A DNA stretch of 64,000 bases from Nemertoderma westbladi. Taxonomy: Eukaryota > Animalia > Xenacoelomorpha. Below the pieces are notes generated by a model. That model did not search any database. It was not told where the DNA came from and worked only from the letters and a program-made list of their open reading frames with translations. Location of the stretch: the NCBI GenBank assembly GCA_032718475.1, contig JAUCBJ010001254.1:1-64000 (forward strand). The letters run 5' to 3'. Shown here one piece after another: positions 27,881 to 62,548 of this stretch; the stretch's first letter is position 1; each line of letters opens with the position of its first letter. Position numbers and translations under genes: made by a program.

Positions 27881-27893
27881 CTAATATTCTGAT
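27881..27893 (-). promoter_or_regulatory. Primer-binding position of C (non-tRNA, complementary to own LTR)
   Basis: Sense ATCAGAATATTAG abuts the 5' LTR and is the exact complement of sense CTAATATTCTGAT at 28461-28473. Confidence 0.75.
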
Positions 27894-28759
27894 TATAAAG
27901 GACATCGCCCGCCTCCTATCCTAACTAATTTCAAATTTGTCTGTCTGTCTGCATTTGGCTGTTTCGGTTGGTTTGGGAATTCTAAGTCAGTAAGTATAAA
28001 AGAAAAAGACGAACAATCCAACTGTCTGACGAGTGCAAGGTCCAGGATATAATCCACCTAATCTAATTATAACCGAAAAGCTAGGACCTTGACGCTATTC
28101 CGGCTAGATAAGGGTTTAGTCCACTACAGTACTGGATGATAGATTGGTAAAAGATAAATATATGATAACATAATAATATACTTGCATTTATTTTATTTAC
28201 AGAGTTAGGTATGGCATATGGTACCGTTACATTACATATAATAACTGAATAATAAATCAACTAATCTAGGGTATTGATAAATGACTAAATAATGACTGAA
28301 TGAGATTAATATTATCGGGCAGTTAATAATACCGTATACTTCTGTCTGTTCTTTATAAAATAGTTACCGGTCCCGCACTGTCTTAGGTAATAGTACAATA
28401 TTATATTACAGGGTATGCAAGCAAAATCTATATCTACGTCTAACTATCTAACCATCTAACATCAGAATATTAGTGGGAAAATCCGCACATGTCAGACATG
28501 GTGAGTTGAGACTGCCAGACTGCAGACAGCTTACTGCTGTTGTACTGACTAGCTATTTTACAGCTGTCAGTCAGACTGTTGACTGCATTCTGGTCACGTG
28601 GTCAGCTCACGGTCGACTCTTACTAATTAAATAATGAAAGTAATTATGTATACTGTATTTATTGCTACGAACTGAAATGTATTATACTGTAGGTTGATTA
28701 TTTTATACTTATACTATATTATATTAAAATATTTGAGTTACGAGGAGATGGTGAACACA
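27894..28759 (-). repeat. 5' LTR of C
   Basis: Direct repeat of 16563-17428; sense termini TGTGTT...TTTATA. Confidence 0.97.
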
Positions 28760-38455: not shown

Positions 38456-39632
38456 TATAAAGGCTTTTGCGGATCTAGCTAGTTATTTTCCCCGCAAAGT
38501 ACTCTGTAGGTGTTTTAAAGGACATAAAAAGCCGTTTCCTTACTGTACCGGTGTTTTAGTGGACATAAAAAGCCATTTCTTCTGTATGTGTACTTTAGCG
38601 GACATAACTAGCGATTTTATGTCGCAATAAGCCAAAATCCTCTTGATACAGTGTAGTTACGATGACGACATCTATCAGCTGATATGTACAGGTACACGTG
38701 TAATTTTTCCCTTGTTCTTTGTTCGGTCGACCAATCAGAGCGATTTTCTTTGTGTTGGACAGTGCATATATAAACTCACGCAATTCAGTCAGTATGTATC
38801 TTTCTAAGCCCAGAACACCGGCTTAGGATTCTTCTGTACTTCTGTGGAAGTTTCAGACTTTAGCCAAACATTAGAACGGCTTTGATCATAGAAACGTATA
38901 ACTGTTATCCTGCCATACCTGGCATACCAGACTCACCTAACCTTTCACCGCATTATTTTACTGCTATTTGCTGTCGATTATTAATTGTTAGAAGTTGATT
39001 GATATGTTGTTATATTTGGAGAATATCGATGAATAATCATAAAACCCCAATCTTCTTGATATACTGAAGGTTAGAGAGACCGGTTACATATAGCAATTGC
39101 GACTTACATTAAAGTGGTTTTGGAGTGAATCTAATGCTATTTAATAGGCCCTACATGTGTCGGTTGCTATTCTCCTTATGTATGATCAAATTCAGTGAAG
39201 GTCGGCAGATCAGTGTGCAGCAGTGTGAGGTAGTGTGCATGAGTGTGACAGGTAACAAAGCATTTCCTAAAGAATGCGCCTTATACGTAAATCATTAGCC
39301 ATCCTGTTGTGCTTAGTGTAAGTCATAACTCTGTTTACATACTTAGAGCGCCACGTCCTAAAGGAACTGTTGATATTTCCCGAAAGTGAATAATATTTGT
39401 CAGAGATTATATATTAACGATCAATCGAATAATACAGTAGGCCTACACCGCAATAAGGTCAGAGCTTCCGAATCCAGTCTCCCGGGTATATCCAGCGGGT
39501 GAATGGTCGCGCATAGGCTGGCTTCGGCTAATGTAGTGTATCCAATACTCGTCATAGGCTAAAGTCGATTTATAACCTAGAAGACACCTAAATTTGGAAG
39601 GTTAAACTGCTAAAGGTCTGAAAGCGCGAACA
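38456..39632 (+). repeat. 5' LTR of B1
   Basis: Direct repeat of 61377-62548; starts TA here versus TG in the 3' copy; TATATAAA at 38767 and TCAGT initiator-like motifs at 38785-38793. Confidence 0.95.
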
Positions 39633-39643
39633 ATAACAGTTAT
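39633..39643 (+). promoter_or_regulatory. Primer-binding position of B1 (complementary to own LTR)
   Basis: ATAACAGTTAT is the reverse complement of ATAACTGTTAT at 38898-38908. Confidence 0.75.
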
Positions 39644-39980
39644 TAATTCTGATTGCAGTGTAGGCAATAAATACAGTTTACTATTGTTCTGGTAAGAACA
39701 ATAACAGTTATAGGATCTTTATTGCGACGTAGGCAATAAAGACTAAAGTACCAGTCGATCGGTAACTAGTAGGCCTAACTACCTAACCACCCGAACCGGT
39801 ACTTACAGCAGTACAGGTACCAGTATTATTTCGATTGTGATATATTGTATATTGTAGGCTGTTAGGGGATTAGGGATTGATCACCCCTTATTCCTTTGTA
39901 TGGTTTACTTATTTCTGTCAGTTTTATTTATTTGTAGGTTAATATTGAGCAGAAGACGTGTAAGCCTGCTCAGATTGTAC

Positions 39981-40562
39981 AGATAATTTGTAGGCTGGAC
40001 TGTTGTCTGACTGTTGTTAAGTCTGAAGGGATTGCAGTGTGTGTAGAGTGTATGTCCGATAAAGTACTAGTTAGGAAAGTGGTGGGCATCCAGTGCTGTA
40101 AGGTAAATCCCCGTGAAAGAATAAGTCGTACTACTCGGTTAGAACGCATACTAACTAACCATTTCGGAGTCTGCATATACTGTAGTTTGTTTAGGCTTGA
40201 TAGTAGTCTGCCAGCGTTTGGTCTGTATTTTGTTTGTGTAGTCTGTACGGGTAGCGTAATATTTCTTATTTAGATAATTTGTAGGCTGGATTGTTGCCTG
40301 GCTGTTGTTAGGTCTGAAGAGATTGCGGTGTGTGTAGAGTGTATGTCCGATAAAGTACTAGTTAGGAACGTAGGGGCTTCCAGTGCTGTGAGGTAAATCC
40401 CCCCGAAAGAATAAGTCGTACTACTCGGTTAGAACGCATACTAACTAACCATTTCGGAGTCTGCATATACTGTAGTTTGTTTAGGCTTGATAGTAGTCTG
40501 CCAGCGTTTGGTCTGTATTTTGTTTGAGTAGTCTGTACGCGTAGCGTAATATTTATTATTCA
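39981..40562. repeat. ~291-bp tandem duplication in the B1 leader
   Basis: Units start at 39981 and 40272; equivalent duplication in B2 at ~55060-55635. Confidence 0.9.
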
Positions 40563-41955
40563 GAGTTTATGCGATTATTCGCAACATTCATACCCCAAGT
40601 TTATTCCTACAGTAATTGTGCTTGTTATAAACCCATAATATTTCCCCTGAACAAACCCATAATATTACACCTTGTTATACATACCGTTATAGTTAAATTA
40701 ACCCCGGTACTACATCAGGGCTGTTTGGCGTAGGTAAAGACTGGAGATTTTATGCTTTGGTCACTCCGGCAGATACCGTGGTTCCTTTAGCTGTACAAGT
40801 ATTTCTAACTGCTGGTTATTTGTTGTATAAGTACTTGTACCTAATTTAGGGTTTAGTGTACAGTGCTTTCCGAAAGTAATTAGTATGTAGGCAGTATATT
40901 TGTGTTGTAAAGTGGTTAATAGGCACGTTGGCTCTGGTAGGCCGCGGTAATTAACTTCTAGGTAGGAACACTCCGTGAAACATAACGTAGTACTTATAGC
41001 GATACGGCTATAAGTCGTCAGACGGTGGTATTTTTCCTATCTGGACAACGCAGTATATTTACTACTGCTTTGTTATTTTCAAATACCGTAGAATCCTGTC
41101 TGTTAGTAATAACCAGATATTCTAACCCTTTGTTAGGCTGGTTTGTAGACTTCTTGTAAAATTACCCTAAAAATTTCGTACGTGTAATTTTTGTGTTTGT
41201 TTAGAGATTGTAATCTCACCCCGAATTGTACGTAATTTGTAGTATTAAGTAACTTAGGTAAATTAGAATTATTTGTTTTAGTGTCCAACAAGTAGCACTT
41301 CACTGAGAGCGTACAGCTTCTGTGCGGTGACTCTTCCCCAGAAATAATAACATTTATTTCAAATATTGACAAAAACCCATTAAACGGGTATATATATATT
41401 ATAAATCAACTCAAACCGATTTATAAAATAGTAGGCCTGTCATACAACAATTAGGTCTTAATATCAGTTGGACTACCTACTGCTTAAATAACGGTAATAA
41501 GGTAAAGTAAAGTAACCAAGTAACCCCTAAAATTCAGAAATTCAATTATTCTAAAATAATTGACATACCGGTATTTACAATAGGCTTATTATATTTATTT
41601 CTATAAATTTGAGCTGAAATTATATACCGCTATTCTGTAATTAATTATAGTCCATAATTATACTTATATATACTATAAGTGTAAGCTGTATACCGGTATT
41701 CACGATAGGCTTATTATATATTTCTATATATTTGTGCTGAAATTATATACCGGTATTCTGTGACAAACCTAGTCTGTAATAATACTTATATATACTATAA
41801 GTGTATACCGGTACTCTAATATATTATATATATATCACGTTACACTGAGTAACAGTATCGGTAATTAATTAATTACTAGGCTAACAGTTGATACTGAATT
41901 ACTAGACTTGCTTTAACTGTAATATAGCAGTAGGCATTCAACTGTACCAACAAAC

Positions 41956-44900
41956 ATGTCTGACACAAAGCAAAACCTGTCAGACAGTCTCCTAGATACA
42001 ACCATCTGTGACCCAGACAGGAGTGTGGAACGTGTGAGACCGAAGTTCAACTCACCTCCTACTGTAAGAAAGATCATCCCTCCAGTAGTAGTATCAGACC
42101 CTAGGCTAGTCCAACACCGTAGGTCTATCATAGGCACTCGAGCTCAAGTCAAGCGAGACCAAGAAGCAGCTGTTGAACAGCAGCAACACTCGAGCCGAGA
42201 ACTTATTTCTCAGCGGCCCGACAGCTCCAGTAGTGCGGATACTGTAGAGCTGACACCCGAGCGCGGAGTAAAGATGGCAGATGCGGTTTATTCGGATCCC
42301 CTTCTCATCCTTCCTGCAGCCGTACTCACTAGGGTATTGATTGCGGTGGAGGAACACCAGATTGATTGGGCGAGAAGTAAGCGATCGACCAAGGATAGTT
42401 ATGCGGGATACACAAGGGAAGAACTGAAGTCTATTGTCGAGTCGCAATGGAACTTCCCCGGACCCGGACTCCCGTTTGACTTATCGGAAGCTGCCTGGGA
42501 AGACATACACAGGATGGGAGTGACAAAAGACACCAGTGATCCAGCTGTATGGAAGAGGTCGGCAGCAGGATACGTACAGGGATTCTTCAGCTCTTTGGAG
42601 CGATTAGAGGAACAACTGTTTCGACAACCCCAAGGACCTCAAGAGCAGGGACAGCTGCTTTATCAAGTTAGAGAAAGAATTCTAAGAATCAGACTAATCC
42701 TATCGGCCTTTGAGGAAGCTTCGAAAAGAAGACAAGACACGTCGTTGCAAGTTGCTGTAAAGACTTGGTTCCAGCGGGTGAGTCTCAAGGTTCAAGGAAC
42801 GGCCCAGTGGAAATCTCAGCTGGCTGAGCGCTCAACCCATGGAGAATCAACAGATGCTACATTTTCTCAAGTGGAAAGCAAAGCGACAGCAGAGAAACCT
42901 CATAAGAGGGATGCTATTGACATCTATCTGTCAGACTATCAACGCTTTCTAGGTGATGAAGAGTTGAGGAGAAGGCTGGATGGACTTCGCCCTAATAGTG
43001 AAGGAGCCAAGCTTGTGTTGGACGCAATAGATGTGGAAATGTTAGCTGCGAACCAAGCTAAATTTGATGAAAGCAGCCGCATCGCTAGGGTCCAAGAAGA
43101 ACAAGTAAAGAAAAAACGTATAGAAGACAGAAAGACAGCAGCAGCGGCAATGGCAGCGGCAGAAGCGGAAAGAAAGGCGGCAGAGGCAGCGGCAGAGGCA
43201 AAAGCAGCAGCTGCAGCAATAAAAGCGGCAGCGGCAGAGGCAAAAGCGGCAGCTGCAGCAGTAGAAACGGAAAGTAAAGCGGCAGCGGCAGAAGCGGAAA
43301 GAAAGATAGCAGTGGCAGAAGCAGAACGAAGAGCATCTGAAGAGACCACCCAACTAGAGTTGGAAATCTGCAAGAGAAGCAAGACTACATAGATAAACAG
43401 AGAACAGCTACTCAGTGGCAGCTGATAAGTCGATCCACCCCCAAGCGACAGGGCTTTACATCATCGGATGAAGGCGATACCAGAGATCCTGAAGGCGGAG
43501 GAAATAGATCTCGTCTCAGCAGGCATAGAAGAATGTCCCACCGTCAGAAATTGCCTGATTTGTCCCCAGCTGTGAGAAGGCAACTAGCTAGCACAGACTT
43601 AGGTAGTACAGAACCCACAGACCAAATTATTAAAGTAGAAAGACTCCCTACTATAGTAGATGAACCTGAAATAATTAGGCCTGTTCTCGAAGCCACCCCT
43701 TCGGTGATAGAGACACCTTTACTCCCAGAACCTACCTCTAAATTCCCTTTGCACAGCACTAAACTACCTGTGCCCAGCAGAACCGCCCCTGAGACAGTTC
43801 CTGTCCTGGACTCCGAGCGAAATATCAATGATTTGTCGCCCTTGGTCCCTCGTCTGCCCGCTACTATGTTGGCGGCTCCCGCTTCGGCGGTCGAGTGGGT
43901 GGATGAGGGGCGGCAGGGGATGAATCTCCTGCTCAGGCAGATGCAGGAGACTGTTCATCAGTTTAAAGGAACAGTAAGGGAAAGTAGGTTAGAGTTGCAA
44001 GAAGTGCAGCAGAGTATCGCGTTAGAATGCGATAAATTAGTAAATACACAAAAGGGTATACCACCACCCCCTGTAACAATGTGTCAACCTGTTAGGTCTG
44101 AAGTATTTCATGCGCAAGGTGTGGAGCCTACACGCATCTATACTGCTAGTGAAGTAGAAACTCCTATAGTAAACCCTATTCAGGGTGATTATAAACCTGT
44201 TGATAATAATATTCCATATAGACCTGATCATAATGAGAGAAATTTATATACCGATAACTCGATATTAAATAATACGATGGCCCAAGAAAGTTTTACGCGT
44301 CAAATGGCTAGAACCGAAGCCCGTCAAGCGGTAAAAGTGGGAGAGATCGTCAAGTTCAATGGAGATGAGATGAAATGGTTACCTTTTAATGAATATTACA
44401 AAGATAACATACAGAACTCTGTGCTATCTAACGGAGAGAAACTTAGATTCCTCATCGAGTGCTTGGAAGGATCTCCCAAGTTAATGGCGTTAAAGTTTAT
44501 TGGACATCCAGATGGATTAAGACAAGTTTGGGATACACTAAACATCAGGTACGGTAATAGGAATAACATAGCTAGGTTTGTATGCAAAATTGGTAGCCCC
44601 CCGAAAGTTCATTAGCAGCGGGATTATAGAGTTTTCCGATGAGATTCAGGAGATCTGTAGACAATTAGATTGGCTAGGTAAATCTCATGAATATCAGAGT
44701 TCTATGGTTATTGGAGCCGTGGCCTCTACTTTACCGAAGGGTGGAGTAGGTACACGCTGGGATAAGAAAGTGTTATATATCACAACAACGGCGAGACCCT
44801 ACCATGGCTGATCTCATGTCATTCTTAAATGGAGAAGTGAAATTACAGCTCCTAAAGCAGTCCAGAGAGAAGACACCGGAAAACAAGGTAAGTGAGAAAC

Positions 44901-45983
44901 CCGTTTCTAGGAGAAAGGTAACACCAGTGTGTTATACCGACGACGGCGAAAGCCAGGCTTCTCAAGAAGAAGACAGCGGGAAAGACACTGAAAGATCTTA
45001 TTATGTCAACAAAACGCCTAAAGACGTAAGTAAATTCAAGTCTCGAACCAATGACAGGAGAGAACAGGTAAGAAAAACTCCTCCTACGTCTCCTAAGAGA
45101 ATTCATGTAAGAAAGCCCGAAGAAAGAACGAGTGTGCACATCGTTACTCAAAATAAGGTAAGTAACATCAAACCGAAATGTGCGCTGTGTGACGGGCCCC
45201 ACCGTTTAAATGTGTGTGATGAATTCCTAAAGAAATCATTAAAGGATAGACGGGAAGTCATGTGGGATAAGCGGTTGTGTTATAATTGCCTCAGACAAGG
45301 ACACCAACGGCGAACCTGTTACTCCGATGCAAGGTGTGCGAAGTGCAGCGCGAAGCATCATATCTTGTTGCACACTGAATTCGAACGAAACAGCCAGAGT
45401 CAGGTAAGTGAGTCCGAACTACATGTCCAATTCAGTGATGTGAACGACACCGACCAAAGTTCTGAGATGGAAGGATTCTATACGGACGAATTCTCCGACG
45501 AAAACGAATCCTGTTACCTGATAAATACCGCAGTGTATTGAGCACTTACGTATGAAAAAGACACCGACAGCGAGCTCCCCCTAACTAATTCTGACCAACA
45601 ACCATCTTGGAAAGCATCAACTTCCAATGTAGGAATCCGAGAATTTCCCGTAGTGCAGTTGAGGGTCCACGGACCTAAAAGGAGTTATATAGTGAACGCC
45701 CTCCTTGACTCCGGTAGCACAGGAACATTCATCGACAAAGAACTAGCCGAAGACATCTTTGCTGGACAACCCAAGTTCCGAACTAAGTTAAACATGTCAG
45801 GAATTATGCAGGTTTGGAAATCTACAGTAATAACAGATTATTATGTAGGTGCGTTGTCCACCCCCCAGGATGAACTAGGAGAACACAGTATAAGGTCAGT
45901 AAAAATGGTGGCGATAAAGAACTTCGCTACCAGCCAAGTAGAACCTTATAACTGGGATGAGGACGATTTCACCCAGCAGCTTA
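41956..45983 (+). pseudogene. gag: B1 gag-protease, disrupted
   Basis: KFNGDEMKW, CLEGSP, RYG, knuckles CALCDGPH..C, CYNCLRQGH..C and CAKCSAKHHILLH, protease ALLDSGS. Stops or frameshifts at ~43390, 44580, 44780 and 45540; cut by B2. Confidence 0.9.
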
Positions 45984-47193
45984 TGTTCGCGCTTTCAGAC
46001 CTTTGGCAGTTTAACCCGCCAAATTAGGATGTCTTCTAGATAATAAATCACCTTTAGCCTATGACAAGTATTTAATTCACTACACTAGTCGAAACCAATC
46101 TGTGCGCGATCATTCACCCATTGGATATACCCGGGAGATTGGGTTCGACGGCTTAATTTTATTGCTATGTAAGCCTAATGTATTATTCGACTGACAGTAT
46201 TATATAATCTCTGACAATATTATTCACTTTCGGGAAATATTAACAGTTCCTTTAGGACGTGGCGCTCTATTTATACAAACAGAGTTATGACTTAAACTAC
46301 TCACAACGATATGGCTTAGTTATAATTCACATATATGGCGCATTCTTTAGGAAATGCTTCGTTATCAGTCTCACTCATACACAATGCTGCACAATACTGC
46401 ACACTGATCTGCCGATCTTCACTGATTTTAGTCACATATAAAAGGAACACGGACCGAATCATGTAGGGTCTATCAAATAACATTAGATTCACTTCAAACC
46501 ACTCAACATAGGTCGCAATCATTTATCTGTAACCTTTCTCTCTTACCTTCGGTATATCAAGAATATTGGGTTTTCGGGGTTATTTGTCGTTATTCCAAAT
46601 ATAATAATTCATCAACCATATTATGAAGAACTGACAGTAAATAGCAGTATAACAATATAAAGTATGCACAGTGTTACACAGTATGCAGTGTATGCAGTAC
46701 TGCAGTATGCAGTATGCAGTGATCAGACATCAGACATCAGATAACGGATATATGTCCTTATAATTAAGCCTACTAGTGTAGGACTAAAAACTGAAAACAC
46801 GGAGGTGCCAAAAGCCGGTTCTTAGGCTCTGGGCAAAAAATAACACTGAACTACTGAGTTTCTGTATACACCTCTAACACAGAGACAACAAACGCTCTGA
46901 TTGGTCAACCTGAACAACGAGAGAACAAAGAAACAAAGAAACGTCGACGTGGCAATATCAGCTGCTAGCCGTCGTCATGGTAGCGACACTGTTTTCAAGA
47001 GTATCGAGCTTTTACGTCACGGAATTACGGATTATGTCCTCTAAAGTACAAATACCGAAGAAATAGCTTTTATGTCCGCTAAAACACCAGTACAGCAAGG
47101 ACACGGCCTTTTTATGCCTGGTAAACCAACTACAGAGTATTTTACGGGAAAAATAAGGAAAAATAACCGGACAATTCAGCAAAAGCTTTTACA
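45984..47193 (-). repeat. 3' LTR of B2
   Basis: Direct repeat of 56002-57211; diverged inverted homologue of the B1 LTRs. Confidence 0.96.
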
Positions 47194-47289
47194 CCGCTCC
47201 CAGAAAATGGGATTTTCAGTCTATAAAATATAAAAATCACAGTTTCTAAAACATAAAGATACTCTAAACAGTTAGTCTTTCTTACGCAG

Positions 47290-48557
47290 ACGGCGTTTAC
47301 GCAGTTTTTTGAGGCTAGCAAGAGTCTTTTTCTCTTTGGGGGGAGCCACTTTACTAGGAGGGCCATAACTCCTGGGTGAAAGGTGCAATATGATTGCATC
47401 AGAAGGTGTAGGATTGTGGTCGAGGTATCTGCCGTTTCGATATGCTTCTCCTCGAGCTGATTTTCCTCCGCTCGTAGCTGGATACGTTCATCCAAAAACT
47501 CTCGCAGAGAATAGGATCGTCCAAGTTCGATAACTTCTTAGAGATTCTGGATTTCCCAATCGAATTGAGATAAGGCCAATTCGTTTATCGATTGGACTTA
47601 CTGTTATAACTTACGTTTATCTGAACAAACGCAGGTTTCCCTTTTGATCTTTATAGAATAGCGTTTAACTCGTTTCGTACAACGCTCTCCTTCACCTTGA
47701 TGAGGGGTTGTATCGCGTTAAACGTGGACGACCATACGGTTGGATAGTGATATTAGGTGTCCGCGTCACAATCCGGCTAGGTAAGATGGGCGGCTAGCTA
47801 GAAATCACTGTCGGAGTGTTACCGATTAATTGTTAGGGTAGCACTAGATCTTTGAACAGTGAATACAGTCCGCGAGGATCCGCGACACCACCAGGATCGC
47901 AGGTCTGAGGTCCAACTAAGGAATGAGGAGGTTTGACCGAGTATTCCGGGACTCTGATCGTAGGTTTACTCCAGGATCGTTCGAGCCGAGTGAGCATAGG
48001 TGATACGTCAACAAGTTTCGGTTTACGTGGATGTTTATGTCTTTCCGTTTATTAGTTGGGTCTAGGGCATTTATCGTAATAATACCAAAGACGCACGTCT
48101 GGTAGGGTAAACGCGGGTGATATTTATTTGTTGTTACAATGCTTCTATCAAGAATTCCAAATATACGTTGGAGTTACCGCGTCCATTTGTTTCTTTAGTG
48201 TCTTTTCTTTCGAGTCGATTTCGAATAGAATTTTCGCATTCGAATTTCAGTTTATGGTTCCGACTCCGCTGGGCAGGATATATAGTCGACATAGTCCGTA
48301 TTGTGTAAATCGATAGGATGACCAGTAGTTAAGAAGCCCATATACATACCATTACGCTGCGTATATCGAGCAGCAAATTTTCTATAGTCCAACTCACGCG
48401 TGAGCTGCTCTTGGGACATTGGCGGTTCGATATAACGACCATCGTCCTCCGCAGCAGTTGGACTAACGTCGCCGCGTATTAAGCTATCAACAAACGCTTG
48501 TAAAAGTAGAGTATATCGCTCCCCGATACCAAGACCATCTTCTATCAACTCCGTCAT
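47290..48557 (-). pseudogene. Degraded accessory ORF region of B2
   Basis: MTELIEDGLG...YIEPPMSQEQLTRELDYRKF and downstream pieces homologous to 59748-61298. Confidence 0.55.
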
Positions 48558-50203
48558 ATCTGCTATATATGAGTTTATCCATATTATAATGAGTTTATAT
48601 TTAGGCGAGCGGGCGTCGCTGCCTACCCCAATCAACCCCCGGACAGTACGAGATCCTCAGCGCCGATGTGTCGTCGCCGCTGTACTTTCGCCAACGACGT
48701 AGCCGCACAACGACAACGACAACCGGCACAAGTCACTCAACTGTCCGTCCCAAAGGCTTAGATGTACTTCAGGTTTTCCTTGGAGAGTTAGGTTACTTTT
48801 ACGATTGCGACTAGCTACTGTAAACACACCTTAGCAGTAACATTCACCTATAAACTCACAAATACCACACAACTGGTCACAACTACGCACATTCGGGCCA
48901 TTTGTCCGTTAGTCAATGCCTTCCAGAATGTCACTGTATTATTATGTATCCTTGGATACTAGTAGTGCGCTATTTATTCCCTATGCTATTCAATGGGACA
49001 AGCTTTCTATTGTTCGTTTAACTCAATTCTAATTCTAGCGTGGTTGTTGCTATGGTGACATTATGCAAAGCTAGCGGTAGAATTAGGGTAATTCCAATGC
49101 ATACAGATCTGGGATGTTATTTAATAGTATTCTTTAATAGTCAATGTTCGGTTTTATACATGACTTTATGAATTTTATCGGCTATTGACTATGTTTGGGA
49201 GACTTTCGCACACTCATATGCATAATAAGATAAATCTCCGCTCCCTTGATCTATTAATTAATGGAAATTTTGGGAATGTTATAAATTGTGTAAAAATGGC
49301 AATTTATTAAATTCATTAAAAGGCATGAATTTAAATTATTCCCTGAAATTTTATTATTTGATAATTAAATGGACATGTTTTGATTCTAGAACATGGCTGG
49401 GGACACAAGATCCTTAATTCTATGACAATTGTCTTTTTAAGAATATCGGTAAATGCTATGATATCTTAATTGACTAGAATTGTTGAAGGATCTGAATTTT
49501 ACAGATTTTGACTTATTAGATTTGCAAATATTAAATAATTAATATTTGAGATGGGCACCGATTTATTCCAGAACTTGCCTGGGGACGTTAACCACTGATT
49601 CTAGAATTTGTCTTTCAAGTATATCGGTGGGTGCCGCGATATCTTAATCGACTAGAATTACAGATGGTCAAAGGGTTTAACAGATTTATTTTGCGTTATA
49701 CGCTACTGTTAAAGGGACATCACGCTACTATATGTATTATTTAATATACGGTATGAGAGCAATATCGCACGAAGCAATGTCAGTGTGAAGAGGCAAGTCG
49801 TTTCCAAGGTCTACCCAGAGCTTGGTTTAGCCGAGACACGAGGATCTGAACTTTGCATTCCTAATACTCTGCCTACCAATAATACTTAAATATAGTAGTG
49901 GCTTTATTGTACTTTAATAAGTACGGATATGTCATCTTACTGTAGTTACGTATTTATAATATAATACGGACAGTAAGGAAAGAAGAAAAGAATTATTTCT
50001 TGCCGTCGCACTAAATATAATATAAGTAATTACGTACGCAATAAACACGAATATATTGCACTATTCTACTAAATAATCGCTAAATAATATTCTACTAAAT
50101 TAAATAAAACGATTATAATAAAATTACATAGTAATACATACATAAATATAAAAATAATAAAATAATATAAAATAATAGAGTCACACACCCACTCCATATG
50201 TTG

Positions 50204-53200
50204 TTACGTTATGGAGTCCCTAGATGTTTGAAGGATTAGGGAGGTGGTCGTGGGAAGAGAATCTTGCCTTCCACAGTTTCCGGAGAGTCCTCCATTCCCT
50301 TCCGATAAACACAAACGACCGACTGGGTGATTGAGTCGCTGCATCCTGAATACAATTCCAGGTTTCCTCTTCGTCCTGGAATAGTGACGATAGAAACATC
50401 GCTCAAAGTATATGACGGCGTCACAAAGCCGATTCCAGGAGCTATAGTGGTCCGTCGCTCTCTGCAGGAGAGGTGAGAGTCCCTGCGAGACGTCTGATGT
50501 TCCAGAGCTCCAATCGCTCTCTCTGATCTTCATGAAGGATCCACTCGCGGTGGGGAGGCCCAGATCCACGGCGTCGTCCCTGGCAACATGTAATACCGAC
50601 AGATCTATCCCGGGTTCAAATAACTCCGATCCACCCGTCCGGGTTTCAGGTTCGACTTTCTCCGCTCCCTTGGCTGGTCTAATCTCAGTCGGAGTAAGAT
50701 GGGGAGGCCATTCATTCTCCTTACTCAGGAAGTCGGGTTCACTTAACCGGTCTATAGTATCTGTCAGTTCTTGAGGAGTTGCTCCTCTGGAAGCGATGTC
50801 CGTTGGATTAAACTTCTTGGGGCAATATCTCCATTGATCTACATTGGAGCTAAGATTGTCATTATCTGAGGAGTGTGGTGTTCCCTCAGTTGGGTCGTCT
50901 CCCTCACTAGTATCATCTTCCCATTCACTCACCTGGCGGACGCGATCTTGAAGCAGTCTTTCTCTGAGCGTTCTTCGGGAAGGTCCAGTAAGGTACCAAC
51001 CTACTCTAGTTCTTACCGCATAGGTCTGTAGTGGCTGCGGTTGAGCAGGTCGTTTCTCTAATGTCTCCAGCGCCTCATGCGCGTTTTGGCCGATGAGTAT
51101 TTGCACTCCAGGATAATCAGTCTGGAATCGAGGTATGTTAAGATGTTGGATGCTCTCATCCTCGTCCCAATTATAAAGGTCTGCTTGAGTAGTAGCGAAG
51201 TTCTTTATAGCCACCATTTTCACTGACCTTATACTGTATTCTCCTAGTTTATCCTGTGGGGTGGACAACTCACCTATATAATAGTCGGCAGCTACAGTAG
51301 AATTCCAAACCTGCATGATCCCTGACATGTTTAGCTTGGTTCGGAACTTGGGTTGTCCAGCAAAGATGACTTCGGCTAGTTCTTTATCGATGAATGTTCC
51401 TGTGCTACCGGAGTCCAGGAGGGCGTTCACTATATAGCTCTTCTGAGGTCCGTGGACCCGTAACTGGACTACAGGAAATTCTCGGATTCCTATATTGGAA
51501 GTTGGCGCTTTCCAAGATGGTTGTTGATCGGAAGTAGTTAAGGTAAGGTCGCTGTCTGTGTCTTTCTCGTACACGAGTGTTCGATACACTGCGGTGGTGT
51601 TTATTAGGTAACAGGATTCGTTTTGGTCGGAGAACTCGTCCGTATAGAATCCTTCCATCTCAGATTGATCAGTGTCGTTCACATCACTGAATTGGACATG
51701 TAGTTCGGACTCACTTACCTGACTCGGGCTGTTTCGTTCGAATTCCGTGTGCAACAAGATATGATGTTTTGCGCCGCACTTTGCACACCTTGCGTCGGAG
51801 TTACAGGTTCGCCGTTGGTGTCCTCGTCTGAGGCAATTATAACACAACCGCTTATCCCACATGACTTCACGTCTATCCTCGAGTGATTTCCTCAGGAATT
51901 TATCACACGCATTTAAACGGTGGGGCCCATCGCACAGCACACATTTCGGCTTGATGTTACTTACCTTAACCTGTGCTATGTGGTGCACACTTGTTCTTTC
52001 CTCGGGCTTTCTCACCTGAATTCTTTTAGGAGACGTAGGAGGGGTTTTTTGTACCGGTTCCCTTCTGTCATTGGGTCGAGACTTGAATTTACTTACCTGG
52101 TCTTTAGGCGTTTTGTTGTCGTAGTAAGATCTCTCAGTGTCTTTCCCGCTATCCTCTCCTTGAGAAGTCTGGCTTTCGCCGTCGTCTGTATAACACACTG
52201 GTGTTACCCTTCTCCTAGAAACGGGTTTCTCACTTACCTTGTTTTCCAGTGTCTTCTCTCTGGACTGCCTTAGGAGCTGTAATTTCACTTCTCTATCTAA
52301 GAATGACATGAGATCAGCCATGGTAGGGTCTCGTCGTTGTTGTTCCATCATATATAACACTTTCTTGTCCCAGCGTGTACCTACTCCACCCTTGGGCAAA
52401 GTAGATGCTAGGGCTCCTACAACCATAGAATTCTGGTATTCATGAGACTTACCTAACCAATCTAGTTGTCTACAGATCTCCTGAATCTCGTCGGAAAACT
52501 CTATAATCCCGCTGCTAAGAAACTTTCGGGGCGCCATTAATTTCGCATATAAATACCTAGCTATGTTAGTCCTATTACCATACCTGATGTTTAGGGTATC
52601 CCAAACTTGTCTTAATCCATCTGGATGTCCAATAAATTTTAATGCCATTAACTTGGGAGATCCTTCCAAGCACTCGATGAGGTATCTAAGTTTCTCTCCA
52701 TTAGATAGCACAGAGTTCTGTATGTTATCTTTGTAATATTCATTAAAAGGTAACCATTTCATCTCATCTCCATTGAACTTGACGATCTCTCCCACCTTTA
52801 CCGCTTGCCGGGCTTCGGTTCTAGCCATTTGACGCGTAAAACTTTCTTGAGCCATCGTATTATTGAATATAGAATTATCGGTATATAAGTTTCTCGGATT
52901 AGGATCAGGTCTATATGGAATATTATTATCAACAGGTTTATAATCACCCTGAATAGGGTTTACTATAGGAGTTTCTACTTCACTAGCAGTATAGATGCGT
53001 GTAGGCTCTACACCTTGCGCATGAGATACTTCAGACCTAACGGGTTGACACATTGTTACAGGGGGTGGTGGTATACCCTTTTGTAAATTGACTAATTTAT
53101 CGCGTTCTAACGCGATACTTTGCTGCACCTTTTGCAACTCTAACCTACTTTCCCTGACTGTTCCCTTGAGCTGCTGGACAGTCTCTTCCATTTCCCGGAC

Positions 53201-53632
53201 CTGCTGAGAGGAGCACAAACAGTGTTCCCTCAGCTGCTCGAGCAGGAGACCCATCTCCCGTCGTCCCTCAGCTACCCACTCAACCGCCGAAGCGGGAGTC
53301 GCCAACGTTGTAGCGGGCGAGCGAGAGACAACGGGAGATAAATTCTTAATATCTCGCTCGGCGTCCAGGATGGGTTCGGACTCGGGAACAGTCCTACTGG
53401 GCACAGGTAGTTTAGTACTGTACAAAGGGAATTTATAGGCAGGTTCTGGGAGTACAGGTGTCTCTATCTTTCTTTCCGCTTCTACTGTTGCCATTGCCTC
53501 TGCCGCCTTTCTTTCCGCTTCTGCTGTTGCCATTGCCTCTGCCATCTTCCTTTCAAGACCCTGTCCAAGTCTAAGACTCATTCTAACACCTTCCAAAAGA
53601 CTATCTGACAGTGCCCGTTTTGTGTCAGACAT
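50204..53632 (-). CDS. gag: B2 Gag-protease fused in frame to the post-RNase H tail (1142 aa); no RT, RH or IN
   Basis: Gag core, three knuckles, ALLDSGS, GWYLTGP, then after a ~45-aa acidic linker QWRYCPKKFNPTDIASRG. Confidence 0.92.
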   Translation of the reverse strand: MSDTKRALSDSLLEGVRMSLRLGQGLERKMAEAMATAEAERKAAEAMATVEAERKIETPVLPEPAYKFPLYSTKLPVPSRTVPESEPILDAERDIKNLSPVVSRSPATTLATPASAVEWVAEGRREMGLLLEQLREHCLCSSQQVREMEETVQQLKGTVRESRLELQKVQQSIALERDKLVNLQKGIPPPPVTMCQPVRSEVSHAQGVEPTRIYTASEVETPIVNPIQGDYKPVDNNIPYRPDPNPRNLYTDNSIFNNTMAQESFTRQMARTEARQAVKVGEIVKFNGDEMKWLPFNEYYKDNIQNSVLSNGEKLRYLIECLEGSPKLMALKFIGHPDGLRQVWDTLNIRYGNRTNIARYLYAKLMAPRKFLSSGIIEFSDEIQEICRQLDWLGKSHEYQNSMVVGALASTLPKGGVGTRWDKKVLYMMEQQRRDPTMADLMSFLDREVKLQLLRQSREKTLENKVSEKPVSRRRVTPVCYTDDGESQTSQGEDSGKDTERSYYDNKTPKDQVSKFKSRPNDRREPVQKTPPTSPKRIQVRKPEERTSVHHIAQVKVSNIKPKCVLCDGPHRLNACDKFLRKSLEDRREVMWDKRLCYNCLRRGHQRRTCNSDARCAKCGAKHHILLHTEFERNSPSQVSESELHVQFSDVNDTDQSEMEGFYTDEFSDQNESCYLINTTAVYRTLVYEKDTDSDLTLTTSDQQPSWKAPTSNIGIREFPVVQLRVHGPQKSYIVNALLDSGSTGTFIDKELAEVIFAGQPKFRTKLNMSGIMQVWNSTVAADYYIGELSTPQDKLGEYSIRSVKMVAIKNFATTQADLYNWDEDESIQHLNIPRFQTDYPGVQILIGQNAHEALETLEKRPAQPQPLQTYAVRTRVGWYLTGPSRRTLRERLLQDRVRQVSEWEDDTSEGDDPTEGTPHSSDNDNLSSNVDQWRYCPKKFNPTDIASRGATPQELTDTIDRLSEPDFLSKENEWPPHLTPTEIRPAKGAEKVEPETRTGGSELFEPGIDLSVLHVARDDAVDLGLPTASGSFMKIRESDWSSGTSDVSQGLSPLLQRATDHYSSWNRLCDAVIYFERCFYRHYSRTKRKPGIVFRMQRLNHPVGRLCLSEGNGGLSGNCGRQDSLPTTTSLILQTSRDSIT

Positions 53633-55989
53633 GCTTATGTGTACAGTTGAATGTCTACTGCTGTATTACAGTCTGAGCAAGTCTAGTAACTCAGTATTAA
53701 CTGCTAGCCTAGTAATTAATTACCGGTACTGCTACTCAGTGTAGCGTGATATATATAATATATTAGAATACCGGTATGCTTATAGTATATATAACTATTA
53801 TTACAGACTAGGTTTATCACAGAATACCGGTATAATTTTAGCACAAATATATATAAATATATAATAGGCCTATCGGAATACCGGTATACAGCTTACAGTT
53901 TGTAGTATATATAATTCTGGACTAGAATTAATTACAAGTACCGGTATAATTTCAGCCTAAATTTATAGAAATAAAGATAATAGGCCTATCGTAAATACCG
54001 GTATGCAGTTTACACTTATAGTGTATATATATAAGTATAATTACAAACTAGAATTAATTACAAGTACCGGTATAATTTCAGCCGAAATTTATAGAAATAA
54101 AGATAATAGGCCTATCGTAAATACCGGTATATCAATTATTTTAAATAATTGAATTTCTGAATTTTAGGGTTACTTGGTTACTTTACTTACTTTATTACCG
54201 TTATTTGAGCAGTAATCCAACTGATATTGAGACCTAATGGTTGTATGGTAGGCCTACGATTTATAAATCGTTAGATTTGATTTATAATATATATATACCC
54301 GTTTTAATGGGTGTAGTCAATGTTTGAAATAAATGTTATTATTTCTGGGGTAATTACTACACAAAGCGGTACGCTTTCAGTGAAGTGTTACGTATAGGAC
54401 ACTAAAACAAATGATTCTAATTTACCTAAGTTACTTAATACTACAAATTACGTACAATTCGGGTGAGATTACAATCTCTAAATAAACACAAAAATTTACA
54501 AAAACACAAAATACGAATTTTTAGGGTAATTTTACAAGAAGTCTACAAACCAGTCTAACTAAGGGTTAGAATCTGGTTATTACAACGGACAGGGTACTAC
54601 GGTATTTGAAATAATAAGTAGTAGTAAGTACACTGCGTTGTCCAGATAGGAAAATACCACCGCCTGACGACCTATAGCCGTATCGCTATAGGTTCTACGT
54701 TATGTATCACGGAGTGTTCCTACCTAGAAGTTAATAGAGCTAATCGAACGTGCCTATCAACCACTTTACAACACAAATATAATGTCTACACTAATTACTT
54801 CGGAAAGTACTGTACACTAAACCCTAAATTAGGTACGAGTACTTGTACAACATATAATCAGTAGTTAAATATACTTGAACAGTTAAAAGAACCACGGCAT
54901 CTGCTGGAGTGACCGATGCACAAAATCACCAGTCTTTACCTACGCCAAGCAGCCCGTGTAGTACCGGGGTTAATTTAACTATAGCGGTATGTATAACAAA
55001 CACAATTACTGTAGGAACAAACTTGGGGAATGAATGTTGCGAATAATCGCATAAACTCTGAATAATAAATATTACGCTACGCGTACAAACTACTCAAACA
55101 AAATGCAGACCGAACACTGACAGACTACTATCAAGCCTAAACAAACTACGGTATATGCAGACTCCGAAATGATTAGGGAGTATGCGCTCTAACCCAGTAG
55201 TGCGACTTATTCTTTAGTTGGGGGTTTACCTTACAGCGTTCGCTGCCCCTACTTCCTAACCGTACTTAATCAGACAAATGATCTACACACACTGCAGTCC
55301 GTTCAGACCTAATAACAGCCGGACAACTATCCAGCCTACAAATTATCTAAATAAAATTATACGCTACCCGTACAGACTTACACAAACAAAGTACAGACTA
55401 AACGATGGCAGACTACTCTCAAGCCTAAATAAACTACAGGACATGCAGACTCCGAAATGATTAGGGAGTATGCGTTCTAACCCAGTAGTACGACTTATTC
55501 TTTAGTTGGGGGTTTACCTTACAGCATTCGCTGCCCCTACTTCCTAACCGTACTTAATCGGACAGGTGATCTACACACACTGCAATCCGTTCAGACTTAA
55601 CAGCAATCAGACAACAGCTCAGCCTACAAATCGTCTGTACAATCTGATCAGGTTTACACGCCTTCTGTTCAATACTGACCTACAAATAAATAAAACTGAC
55701 AGAAATAGGCCTAAGTAAAATCCCAATAAAAACCAGGCGTCCCCGATTAATTATTAAGACCTACCGGCATATATAATCAAATCGAATAATACTGCTGTAC
55801 TTGTACGGGAAGTACCGGTTAGGACAGTTAGGCCTACCGACCTACTGAAGTACCGGTTCTGGCAGTTGGACCTACGGGCCTACGGCAGTACCGGTTCTGG
55901 CAGTTGGGCCTACTGACCTACAGATGGACCGTTCAGGTTTACCGGTTGACCGGTACTTTCAACTTTATTGCTTACTGCAATAAAGAAGC

Positions 55990-56001
55990 TATATCCGTTA
56001 T
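55990..56001 (-). promoter_or_regulatory. Primer-binding position of B2 (complementary to own LTR)
   Basis: Sense ATAACGGATATA is the exact complement of sense TATATCCGTTAT at 56759-56770. Confidence 0.8.
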
Positions 56002-57211
56002 TGTTCGCGCTTTCAGACCTTTGGCAGTTTAACCCGCCAAATTAGGATGTCTTCTAGATAATAAATCACCTTTAGCCTATGACAAGTATTTAATTCACTA
56101 CACTAGTCGAAACCAATCTGTGCGCGATCATTCACCCGTTGGATATACCCGGGAGATTGGGTTCGACGGCTTAATTTTATTGCTATGTAAGCCTAATGTA
56201 TTATTCGACTGACAGTATTATATAATCTCTGACAATATTATTCACTTTCGGGAAATATTAACAGTTCCTTTAGGACGTGGCGCTCTATTTATACAAACAG
56301 AGTTATGACTTAAACTACTCACAACGATATGGCTTAGTTATAATTCACATATATGGCGCATTCTTTAGGAAATGCTTCGTTATCAGTCTCACTCATACAC
56401 AATGCTGCACAATACTGCACACTGATCTGCCGATCTTCACTGATTTTAGTCACATATAAAAGGAACACGGACCGAATCATGTAGGGTCTATCAAATAACA
56501 TTAGATTCACTTCAAACCACTCAACATAGGTCGCAATCATTTATCTGTAACCTTTCTCTCTTACCTTCGGTATATCAAGAATATTGGGTTTTCGGGGTTA
56601 TTTGTCGTTATTCCAAATATAATAATTCATCAACCATATTATGAAGAACTGACAGTAAATAGCAGTATAACAATATAAAGTATGCACAGTGTTACACAGT
56701 ATGCAGTGTATGCAGTACTGCAGTATGCAGTATGCAGTGATCAGACATCAGACATCAGATAACGGATATATGTCCTTATAATTAAGCCTACTAGTGTAGG
56801 ACTAAAAACTGAAAACACGGAGGTGCCAAAAGCCGGTTCTTAGGCTCTGGGCAAAAAATAACACTGAACTACTGAGTTTCTGTATACACCTCTAACACAG
56901 AGACAACAAACGCTCTGATTGGTCAACCTGAACAACGAGAGAACAAATAAACAAAGAAACGTCGACGTGGCAATATCAGCTGCTAGCCGTCGTCATGGTA
57001 GCGACACTGTTTTCAAGAGTATCGAGCTTTTACGTCACGGAATTACGGATTATGTCCTCTAAAGTACAAATACCGAAGAAATAGCTTTTATGTCCGCTAA
57101 AACACCAGTACAGCAAGGACACGGCCTTTTTATGCCTGGTAAACCAACTACAGAGTATTTTACGGGAAAAATAAGGAAAAATAACCGGACAATTCAGCAA
57201 AAGCTTTTACA
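56002..57211 (-). repeat. 5' LTR of B2
   Basis: Direct repeat of 45984-47193. Confidence 0.96.
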
Positions 57212-57216
57212 GCTTA

Positions 57217-58114
57217 AGATACCTAGATTCAACACAGACTACCCTGGAGTGCAAATACTCATCGGCCAAAATGCGCATGAGGCGCTTGAGACATTGGAGA
57301 AACGGCCTGCTCAACCGCAACCACTACAACTGGCCCTTCCCGTAGAACTTTCATGGAAAGGTTACCAAAAGAACGGGTATACCAAGTAAGTGAATGGGAA
57401 GCGGAGAGCAGTGAGGTAGACGACCCAACTGAGGGAACACCATACTCCTCAGATAATGACGATATTAACTCCAATGTAGATCAATGGAGACATTGCCCCG
57501 AGACGATTAATCTAGCCGACATCGCTTCCAGAGGAGCAACTCCTCAAGAACTGACAGATACTCCAGACTGGTTAGGTGGACCCTACTTCCTAAGTAAAGA
57601 AGATGAATGGCCTCCCCATCTTACCACGGCTGAGATTAGACAAGCCAAGGGAGCGGAGAAAGTCAAACCTAAAACCCGGACGAGTAAATCAAGGTTATTT
57701 AAACCCGTGATAGATCTGTCTGTACTACACATTGCCAGGGACGACGCTGTGGATCTAAACTCCCCCACCGCGAACCGATCTGTTGTGGAGATCAGAGAGA
57801 GAGACTGGAGATCTGGAACACCAGATGTCTCGCCGGGACTCTCACCTCTCCTGCCGGGAGCGATGGACCACTATAGATCCTGGAATCGGCTTTGTAAGGC
57901 CGTCGTGTATTTGAAGCGATGTTTTTATCGTCACTATTCCAGGACGAAAAGGAAACCTGGAATTGTATTCGAAACACAACAACTCAATCGCCCAGTTGGT
58001 CGTTTATGTTTACTGGAAAGAGACCGAGAACTGTCCGGAAACTATGGAAGGCAAGATACTCTTCCCACGACCACCTTCCTAATCCAACAAACATCTAGGG
58101 ACTCCCCAGCGTAA
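57217..58114 (+). pseudogene. Remainder of the B1 protease/tail ORF after the B2 insertion
   Basis: KIPRFNTDYPGVQILIGQNAH...QWRHCPETINLADIASRG, collinear with the B2 ORF. Confidence 0.88.
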
Positions 58115-61298: not shown

Positions 61299-61376
61299 CT
61301 GTTTAGAGTATTTTTATATTTTAGAAACTGGGATTTTTTATATTTTATAGAATTAAATCCCATTTTCTGGGAGCGG

Positions 61377-62548
61377 TGTAAAGGCTTTTGCGGATCTAGC
61401 TAGTTATTTTCCCCACAAAGTACTCTGTAGGTGTTTTAACGGACATAAAAAGCCGTTTCCTTACTGTACCGGTGTTTTAGTGGACATAAAAAGCCATTTC
61501 TTCTGTATGTGTACTTTAGCGGACATAACTAGCGATTTTATGTCGCAATAAGCCAATAATCCTCTTGATACAGTGTAGTTACGATAACGACATCTATCAG
61601 CTGATATGTACACGTGTAATTTTTCCCTTGTTCTTTGTTCGGTCGACCAATCAGAGCGATTTTCTTTGTGTTGGACAGTGCATATATAAACTCACGCAAT
61701 TCAGTCAGTATGTATCTTTCTAAGCCCAGAACACCGGCTTAGGATTCTTCTGTACTTCTGTGGAAGTTTCAGACTTTAGCCAAACATTAGAACGGCTTTG
61801 ATCATAGAAACGTATAACTGTTATCCTGCCATACCTGGCATACCAGACTCACCTAACCTTTCACCGCATTATTTTACTGCTATTTGCTGTCGATTATTAA
61901 TTGTTAGAAGTTGATTGATATGTTGTTATATTTGGAGAATATCGATGAATAATCATAAAACCCCAATCTTCTTGATATATTGAAGGTTAGAGAGACCAGT
62001 TACATATAGCAATTGCGACTTACATTAAAGTGGTTTTGGAGTGAATCTAATGCTATTTAATAGGCCCTACATGTGTCAGTTGCTATTCTCCTTATGTATG
62101 ATCAAATTCAGTGAAGGTCGGCAGATCAGTGTGCAGCAGTGTGAGGTAGTGTGCATGAGTGTGACAGGTAACAAAGCATTTCCTAAAGAATGCGCCTTAT
62201 ACGTAAATCATTAGCCATCCTGTTGTGCTTAGTGTAAGTCATAACTCTGTTTACATACTTAGAGCGCCACGTCCTAAAGGAACTGTTGATATTTCCCGAA
62301 AGTGAATAATATTTGTCAGAGATTATATATTAACGATCAATCGAATAATACAGTAGGCCTACACCGCAATAAGGTCAGAGCTTCCGAATCCAGTCTCCCG
62401 GGTATATCCAGCGGGTGAATGGTCGCGCATAGGCTGGCTTCGGCTAATGTAGTGTATCCAATACTCGTCATAGGCTAAAGTCGATTTATAACCTAGAAGA
62501 CACCTAAATTTGGCAGGTTAAACTGCTAAAGGTCTGAAAGCGCGAACA
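61377..62548 (+). repeat. 3' LTR of B1
   Basis: TGTAAAGG...GCGAACA following the PPT. Confidence 0.95.

Follow-up and report, generated by a model that had tools for sequence, protein, structure and literature searches.

Tf1 and Tf2 of Schizosaccharomyces pombe and Tj1 of S. japonicus, which belong to the Tf1/sushi group of Ty3/gypsy, have no tRNA-type primer-binding site (PBS). According to the available portions of the sources, ~11 nt of their own LTR RNA pairs with the PBS and would prime after an RNase H cut (PMC7175516, PMC4600332). Self-priming has been predicted, in the accessible part of a further paper, for Tcn1 (gypsy) and TAR (copia) of plants and fungi, where a stretch of at least 10 nt that starts 0–5 nt after the LTR is complementary to the LTR (PMC6317226). 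For the Belpaoviridae, the ICTV profile specifies a PBS of 18 nt that complements the 3' end of tRNA-Arg or tRNA-Gly, and calls Bel/Pao replication poorly understood (PMC8742986). Self-priming in Bel/Pao elements was not described in the literature searched, and the available portions of PMC554778, PMC3118150 and PMC6238403 hold no passage on the PBS, tRNA or priming.

The window, i.e. the whole 64,000-nt stretch of DNA analysed here, contains three young Bel/Pao elements, A, B1 and B2, with B2 nested on the minus strand inside B1 (Table 1). Judging from their sequences, these elements probably use their own RNA to prime minus-strand DNA, RNase H being predicted to cut first, at the 3' edge of a duplex between LTR and PBS. 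By analogy, the proposed mechanism would resemble that of Tf1, without placing the elements in Tf1/sushi. The proteins of A, B1 and B2 are of Bel/Pao type and not of Ty3/gypsy type. Pfam DUF1759 marks a Bel/Pao-type Gag in all three, together with zinc knuckles and a protease, and Peptidase_A17 is present in 11 of 11 homologs of the B2 Gag-protease. The Pol of A is ordered PR-RT-RH-IN (profile positions 549–1644), and LTRs, a polypurine tract and a target-site duplication (TSD) were found as in Bel/Pao elements. In line with the ICTV description, A carries Gag DUF1759, protease, RT, Peptidase_A17 (RNase H region), integrase and DUF5641, with a 5-bp TSD, and the LTRs measure 0.9–1.2 kb.

Table 1. 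Positions of the features of elements B1, B2 and A in the window.
Element	Feature	Position	Strand	Remarks
B1	5' LTR, 1177 nt	38456..39632	+	TSD GGTTG at 38451-38455 and 62549-62553
B1	Predicted promoter	38731..38789	+	CCAAT 38731, TATA-like box 38767-38774, initiator-like TCAGT 38785; start predicted
B1	LTR site complementary to PBS	38898..38908	+	Candidate primer 3' end 38908
B1	Short imperfect tandem repeat, immediately after site	38909..38932	+	Top 1.5% of LTR 40-nt windows
B1	PBS	39633..39643	+	Flush with LTR end, without TGG
B1	Tandem duplicate of LTR end, PBS and hairpin	39696..39765	+	Second PBS 39701-39712
B1	Gag (DUF1759)-zinc knuckle-protease region	41923..45983	+	Several broken frames, B2 inserted
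B1	Remainder, short post-RNase H scrap	57290..58114	+	Without RT, without integrase
B1	3' LTR	61377..62548	+	Same site at 61814-61824; 98.7% identical to 5' LTR
B2	5' LTR, 1210 nt	56002..57211	-	TSD GCTTA at 45979-45983 and 57212-57216
B2	Predicted promoter	CCAAT 56922, initiator-like TCAGT 56875 and 56867	-	Motifs
B2	LTR site complementary to PBS	56759..56770	-	Candidate primer 3' end 56759
B2	7-nt tandem repeats, immediately after site	56697..56758	-	Tract varies between genomic copies
B2	PBS	55990..56001	-	Flush with LTR end, without TGG
B2	9-bp hairpin just 3' of PBS	55963..55985	-	Likewise after B1 second PBS
B2	Open frame, 1153 aa	50204..53665	-	Gag (DUF1759), zinc knuckles, aspartic protease, short post-RNase H scrap; without RT, without integrase
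B2	3' LTR	45984..47193	-	Same site 46741-46752; purine tract just upstream; LTRs 99.8% identical
A	5' LTR, 866 nt, TG...TA	27894..28759	-	TSD GTACC at 16558-16562 and 28760-28764; element 28759-16563
A	LTR site, 13/13 complementary to PBS	28461..28473	-	Then 8-nt tandem repeats
A	PBS	27881..27893	-	Flush with LTR end, without TGG; sequence unlike B PBSs
A	Coding region	17991..26845	-	Gag-protease frame 21374-26845 overlaps RT-RNase H-integrase frame 17991-21395
A	3' LTR	16563..17428	-	99.8% identical to 5' LTR

B1 and B2 are non-autonomous Bel/Pao derivatives without RT, RNase H and integrase of their own. Significant profile matches in B2 cover positions 14–517 and 1072–1127, with no match at all between them and no significant one beyond, and the same holds for B1. 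Since RT and integrase are lacking, these enzymes must come in trans. A search for an autonomous partner found none, the best Gag-protease matches being 23–29% identical over at least half of the region, and the 3-kb 3' region of B1 and B2 has no long conserved frame. Kinship of A and B2 in the Gag-protease tree was not used as evidence, because the placement rests on long branches. Exact LTR-end patterns gave no matches in metagenome or viral contigs, nor did the Pol profile in viral contigs.

Unlike the Belpaoviridae of the ICTV profile, A, B1 and B2 lack a TGG within 8 nt of their LTR ends, and the PBS of each pairs with its own LTR. The first-pass annotation had stated that no TGG-type PBS follows the 5' LTR of B1 or B2. 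The pairing that it reported, an exact reverse complement over 11/11 nt in B1 and 12/12 nt in B2 (offset 0 in both), agrees with the coordinates and with the LTR alignment, in which the two LTR sites are homologous. The PBS is flush with the LTR end, and the duplex does stop at the LTR boundary with the 3' end of the LTR segment toward U5. Element A, which was absent from the earlier annotation, has an unrelated PBS that matches its own LTR over 13/13 nt at offset 0. A second, duplicated PBS in B1 pairs over 12/12 nt with positions 38897–38908 of its own LTR. Complementarity of at least 10 nt to the own LTR, starting 0–5 nt after it, is the feature from which self-priming was predicted in Tcn1 and TAR, of other superfamilies and hosts (PMC6317226), and A, B1 and B2 have it (13, 11 and 12 nt).

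The B1 and B2 LTRs are 74% identical and form one family, and therefore count as one comparison with two covarying positions. Two positions, 6 and 8, differ between their PBSs; the alignment confirms that so do both partner positions in the LTR sites. Across elements, the B1 PBS matches the B2 LTR over 6 nt at offset 0 and 8 nt at offset 1, and for the B2 PBS the B1 LTR contains no match as long as 6 nt. The B1 PBS is nearly palindromic. Among dinucleotide-shuffled LTRs, the match was retained in 7 of 5000 for B1 and in 1 of 5000 each for B2 and A, and fake LTR ends across the window gave a match of at least 11 nt at 27 of 17,938 positions.

The Caenorhabditis elegans Bel/Pao element Cer7 has been proposed to carry a tRNA-like primer sequence of its own; no confirming text was found in the literature searched. 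That sequence is a tRNA-derived insert outside the LTR, whereas in A, B1 and B2 the complement lies within the LTR, and neither Rfam nor ARAGORN found a tRNA-like primer or ribozyme in the window.

Of 100 related loci, 58 had no repeat flanking pol and 25 of the other 42 had no defined LTR end, leaving 17 with both LTR ends defined; a stricter terminal-repeat filter was set aside as too strict. Four of the 17 have a TGG-type PBS, and none of these four matches its own LTR. All 13 non-TGG relatives match their own LTR over 11–14 nt, at offsets of 0–5 in 12 and of 6 in one, with LTR ends corrected by hand in four of the 13 after the first test had failed or come out weaker. Matches of at least 11 nt occurred with the own LTR in 12 of 12 elements versus 1 of 132 cross-element pairs, and none of 20 flank controls reached 10 nt. 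Five of the 13 matches are contiguous and eight exist only across a GT-AG intron within the LTR. The search for such junctions accepted any GT..AG pair; the donors found were GTAAGT (five times), GTAAGA, GTAAGC and GTACGT, and all acceptors were YAG. These GTA-type donors and YAG acceptors in all eight cases tie the pairing to RNA rather than DNA. The accessible part of the work on Tcn1 and TAR describes no splice-junction form (PMC6317226). A junction at the site was also considered for A, B1 and B2 and rejected: the best spliced matches, with non-canonical donors, reached 9–11 nt and fell short of the contiguous ones, and neither B1 nor B2 has a donor after the site.

Our results bear on the tRNA-independent, self-priming Bel/Pao lineage proposed in the first-pass annotation in two ways. 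Self-priming gains from the third element in the window and from the 13 relatives, all of it evidence from sequence. In contrast, the self-complementary trait is scattered over the tree of relatives, and the trees do not show one monophyletic self-priming lineage.

According to our preferred reading, transcription would begin ~75–110 nt upstream of the LTR site. The site would then anneal to the PBS across 570–760 nt of LTR RNA, or on a dimer partner RNA, with the help of Gag. RNase H, supplied in trans for B1 and B2, would cut after the site as in Tf1, and the resulting capped leader with its free 3'-OH would be the primer. Strong-stop DNA would end at the cut and jump to the 3' LTR. This may be the reason why short tandem repeats begin exactly at the position of the cut. 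Plus-strand synthesis would copy the primer end into the new PBS. An unremoved primer would in this way template the PBS. A change in the LTR site would thus be carried to the PBS, and although the covariation that the first-pass annotation attributed to compensatory mutations stands at both positions, two independent mutations are not required. In many relatives, the primer segment would be an exon–exon junction, and the contiguous form may come from intron loss.

As in the Tf1 group, a tRNA PBS is absent and the own LTR RNA pairs with the PBS. Several differences from the available description of Tf1 stand beside this likeness: A, B1 and B2 belong to another superfamily, B1 and B2 would need enzyme in trans, Bel/Pao relatives build the segment across an intron, and the predicted place of the segment is ~100 nt into the RNA and 570–760 nt away from the PBS, unlike the first 11 nt of the Tf1 RNA (PMC7175516, PMC4600332). 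Promoter motifs suggest a start 75–110 nt upstream of the site. B1 and B2 have a conserved CCAAT ~150–170 nt upstream of it, and a TATA-like box lies 122–135 nt upstream in B1 and two relatives (L023, L064) and 25–35 nt upstream in none of 12 elements tested. Both motifs speak against the strict Tf1 geometry, a sub-case of our reading in which transcription starts at the site and the primer is the first 11–13 nt; moreover, exon 1 of the junction types would then be just 4–10 nt. This sub-case seems unlikely, even though the arrangement is proven in Tf1, according to the part of the source available (PMC7175516), and the start in A, B1 and B2 is itself predicted, with a degenerate TATA box in B2 and unclear promoter motifs in A. 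Run X5 was rejected as RNA evidence, as its RNA nature is a guess and one of its contigs extends over LTR sequence that lies upstream of the predicted start.

The PBS–LTR duplexes are A/U-rich (−10 to −14 kcal/mol) with partners far apart, and equilibrium folding gave helix probabilities of 0.84 for the second PBS of B1, 0.00 for the first, 0.11 for B2 and 0.00 for A. Pairing across 570–760 nt, for which folding gives little support in A and B2, would not be needed if self-priming used a ready-made 3' end. In that case the genomic RNA, or else a short transcript of a solo LTR or of the LTR of a different copy, would end at the site and anneal to the PBS without an RNase H cut. This would account equally well for pairing and covariation, and the family is abundant enough for short transcripts in trans (99,560 contigs, run X1). 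However, AATAAA or ATTAAA occurs downstream of the site in 8 of 10 relatives examined, suggesting that the RNA runs past the site. B1 and B2 have no conserved AATAAA in common there, a point against our own reading. Spliceosomal first-step cleavage is not the source of such an end, since no GT follows the site in B1 and B2, and the tandem repeats adjoin the site and not the predicted start. We consider a ready-made end quite unlikely. The repeats begin right after the site in A, B1 and B2, ranking in the top 0.1% and 1.1% of LTR windows in the two elements other than B1. This signal was noticed post hoc and is weak when 14 elements, two discovery cases among them, are taken together (p = 0.034, against p = 0.097 for the upstream control).

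An improbable alternative is that priming really relies on a fragment of a host tRNA or on another small RNA, with the LTR–PBS pairing serving as a structural or regulatory switch. Bel/Pao elements are described as tRNA-primed (PMC8742986), and half-tRNA priming exists in Copia lineages, according to the accessible part of that paper (PMC6317226). Yet the PBS varies by family and tracks its own LTR each time, and no conserved host RNA could follow it in this way. The absence of self-matches from the TGG-type relatives also argues against it, as does the position of the duplex edge, which coincides with the LTR boundary, the point at which a primer has to stop, or falls a few nt from it at most. 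Coincidence, or a DNA-level fold-back duplication unrelated to priming, can hardly be the answer, despite the repeat-rich window and the palindromic tendency of the B1 PBS, given the matches in 3/3 window elements and 13/13 non-TGG relatives, the own-versus-cross comparison and the eight matches that need intron removal, which DNA fold-back cannot make.

Self-priming by the own RNA of A, B1 and B2, if true, would place a third LTR superfamily beside Tf1/sushi and the Copia cases predicted so far, and its geometry would differ from theirs (an internal primer, a long U5 and, in relatives, a splice-made primer). It would offer a direct handle on how Bel/Pao elements begin reverse transcription, help to decide between an ancestral and a repeated origin of self-priming, and help to explain empty PBS scans for many animal elements. 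Tentatively, and with rather less assurance, we propose that much of the Bel/Pao superfamily might prime with a segment from inside its own LTR RNA (released as a capped leader of ~100 nt), spliced from two exons in many families. A, B1 and B2 would then be contiguous by repeated intron loss, B1 and B2 would use enzymes in trans, and the primer would rewrite the PBS each cycle. From self-priming in these elements, if true, it would also follow that splicing is able to gate retrotransposition and that templating makes PBS and LTR site evolve together.

Among B2-like copies (runs X1 and X3), 30 places over 831 nt differ in at least 15% of the depth, and none of these falls in the PBS or the LTR site, which together make up 24 nt and would be expected to hold ~0.9, so that the absence is uninformative. 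Nine of the 25 loci with undefined LTR ends were scanned with 36–161 candidate ends each; L002, L010, L018, L026 and L085 gave no clear result, and in L028, L030, L032 and L063 a junction match of 11 nt followed an ACA end. Junction matches of 14 nt in L011 and 12 nt in L029 adjoin ends that are not fixed by a second LTR. In L023, the downstream LTR copy has a contiguous site, and the upstream copy has an acceptor-like tract there.

In both B1 and the nested B2, two Bel/Pao elements of the window, the primer-binding site (PBS) adjoining the 5' LTR pairs with a segment of the element's own LTR, here called the site. The 11 nt after the 5' LTR of B1 are the exact reverse complement of LTR positions 443-453, and the 12 nt after that of B2 of LTR positions 442-453. 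The two sites are aligned in the B1/B2 LTR comparison; between the two PBSs there are two differences, each mirrored at the pairing position of the LTR site. Neither PBS starts with TGG. The first-pass annotation had proposed this 11/11 and 12/12 pairing with matched changes, as well as the non-TGG PBS, and the exact complements, the aligned sites and the sequence after each 5' LTR bear it out; dinucleotide-shuffled LTRs contained the match in 7/5000 (B1) and 1/5000 (B2) cases. B1 holds a second PBS copy, and this copy is preferred in RNA folding (helix probability 0.84, with 0.00 for the first copy, 0.11 for B2 and 0.00 for the third Bel/Pao element, A). The PBS of A differs in sequence from those of B1 and B2; it too is complementary to the element's own LTR, over 13/13 nt and at offset 0, directly at the LTR end (1/5000 shuffles). 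Element A is young, with LTRs 99.8% identical and two long overlapping frames, and the best Pol relatives, at 36-40% identity, come from marine invertebrates.

Features of the window and of related loci
Feature	Position or loci	Strand	Remarks
B1, LTR element	38456-62548	+	TSD GGTTG
B2, LTR element nested in B1	57211-45984	-	TSD GCTTA
B1 second PBS copy	39701-39712	+	pairs 12/12 with LTR
B1 tandem duplication	39628-39765		~68 nt; spans LTR end, PBS, hairpin
B2 repeat-tract joints	56755-56760		
B1/B2 conserved stretch	47194-50200 and 58100-61376		~3 kb, 83% conserved between B1 and B2; no long open frame
A, third Bel/Pao element	28759-16563	-	TSD GTACC
Tandem-repeat array surrounding A	16322-16562 and 28760-29030		
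Gag-protease remnant	8600-9751	-	matches Bel/Pao profile; no LTR pair found
RVT_1 reverse-transcriptase fragments	4221-5456 and 11529-12065		other retroelements
Junction-type loci (LTR intron)	L022, L031, L050, L064, L094, L099, L016, L097		PBS pairs exon-exon junction only
L023 upstream LTR	L023:1-345		pyrimidine-rich tract and CAG

Related loci were fetched by Pol alignment, 80 from metagenomes and 20 from a genome collection; since the 80 were the top-ranking of at least 557 confirmed loci, the set is biased towards the query's kin. A repeat flanked pol in 42/100 loci, and two copies fixed the LTR end in 17, representing 16 families because L022 and L097 are 94% alike. The LTR ends of L016, L048, L050 and L097 were corrected by eye after the first pass. 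Four of the 17 have a TGG-type PBS, with own-LTR matches of at most 5 nt, and all 13 non-TGG loci with defined ends match their own LTR. Contiguous matches of 11-12 nt at offsets 0-4 occur in four loci, and L048 has one of 13 nt at offset 6, beyond the initial limit of 5 and in the downstream LTR only. In the remaining eight, the match of 11-14 nt exists only once a GT-AG intron inside the LTR (77-388 nt) is removed; the splice test admitted any GT and any AG, and in all eight the donor is GTA-type and the acceptor YAG. For nine further loci the start of the LTR was known but not its end; an 11-nt junction match appeared in four of them and nothing clear in five. The contigs carrying the Bel/Pao elements L081-L100 are catalogued under bacterial or archaeal genomes, and are most likely host-animal DNA in the bins.

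On this sequence evidence, B1, B2 and A are likely to prime themselves, RNase H cutting at the edge of the duplex. Less probably, a ready-made RNA 3' end primes synthesis. A host small RNA is an unlikely primer: in the comparison between elements, a match of at least 11 nt joined the PBS to its own LTR in 12/12 cases (12 of 20 elements) and to another element's LTR in 1/132 pairs. Chance pairing fares worst: 27/17,938 window positions taken as fake LTR ends gave a match of at least 11 nt, and the flank after the 3' LTR reached 10 nt in 0/20 elements. At the level of sequence, the self-pairing is genuine, clearly exceeds what chance would give and belongs to a pattern that is broad in Bel/Pao.

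If B1, B2 and A are self-priming, the primer is more likely to be an internal segment of the RNA than its 5' end. In Tf1 of Schizosaccharomyces pombe, it is bases 1-11 of the RNA that anneal to the PBS, and RNase H cleaves just after base 11 (PMC7175516). The Tf1 primer is the RNA 5' end; the segment here is probably internal, judging by promoter motifs upstream of the site. B1 and B2 have a CCAAT box in common; upstream of the site, B1 carries a TATA-like box at 131 nt and an initiator-like motif at ~110 nt, the initiator-like motifs of B2 lie at 97-105 nt, and L023 and L064 have TATA-like boxes at 122-135 nt. The remaining 8/12 elements have no promoter motif at a telling distance from the site. 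In each of B1, B2 and A, short tandem repeats start where the site ends, a pattern spotted post hoc and weak over 14 elements (p 0.034). In a few contigs the B2 repeat tract is replaced, and strong-stop DNA might end and jump at this position. Plus-strand synthesis would copy the primer end into the new PBS; if so, compensation between PBS and site is to be expected without a second mutation. The Tf1 primer is reportedly not removed. Among the reads, common variants were absent from both the PBS and the site, a zero that carries no weight with ~0.9 expected.

The first-pass annotation had also proposed a self-priming Bel/Pao lineage. Self-pairing extends to non-TGG relatives and, by sequence, is widespread in Bel/Pao, but the Pol and Gag-protease trees demonstrate no single lineage. 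In the Pol tree (42 rows, broken-gene pieces included, midpoint root for drawing), a 28-row group with 100% support holds 11 junction-type and four contiguous-type loci intermixed and no TGG type. A lies outside this group; its long branch is loosely associated with L048 and with two named proteins of marine invertebrates. L011 (junction type, 14 nt) falls among TGG-type loci, which may point to multiple origins or to reversals. In the Gag-protease tree, both A and B2 sit on long branches whose placement is uncertain. Contiguous forms are scattered among junction forms, with 5 changes over 5 rows and no clustering relative to shuffles. In L023, the pyrimidine-rich tract and CAG of the upstream LTR stand where the downstream LTR has the contiguous site. 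This looks like an intron present in one LTR and lost from the other, in copies 88% identical on a contig that may be chimeric, and suggests that intron loss may yield the contiguous form, a reading that rests on L023 and is not extended to A, B1 or B2.

Cer7 of C. elegans is said to have been proposed to encode its own tRNA-like primer. The ICTV account of Bel/Pao gives a PBS for tRNA-Arg or tRNA-Gly and calls replication poorly understood (PMC8742986), and self-priming is described for the Tf1/sushi, Tcn1 and TAR lineages (PMC6317226). The full-text literature searched held no description of self-priming in Bel/Pao, and subscription papers, Repbase or GyDB notes may hold an earlier mention. 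The papers covered include PMC4600332, PMC3601003, PMC6934838, PMC5443660, PMC3286476 and PMC8220671; PMC554778, PMC3118150 and PMC6238403 gave no relevant term match. Self-priming in these elements would be a variant of a known mechanism, in a family for which tRNA primers are the accepted description.

B1 and B2 encode Gag, zinc knuckles and protease, and are non-autonomous elements. On a Bel/Pao profile built from 38 proteins, the significant matches of B2 are confined to positions 14-517 and 1072-1127; those of A span 549-1644. Because B1 and B2 lack reverse transcriptase (RT) and integrase, the RNase H/RT enzyme would have to be supplied in trans; a search for Gag-protease homologues found no autonomous partner. 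With Gag identities to A of 27-31% over 115-212 aa, B1 and B2 are not close derivatives of A. The frame-free stretch conserved between them occupies the place of RT and integrase. Despite lacking both, the B family (47200-57300) is hugely abundant and diverse in DNA runs, with 99,560 contigs in X1 and 23,157 in X3.
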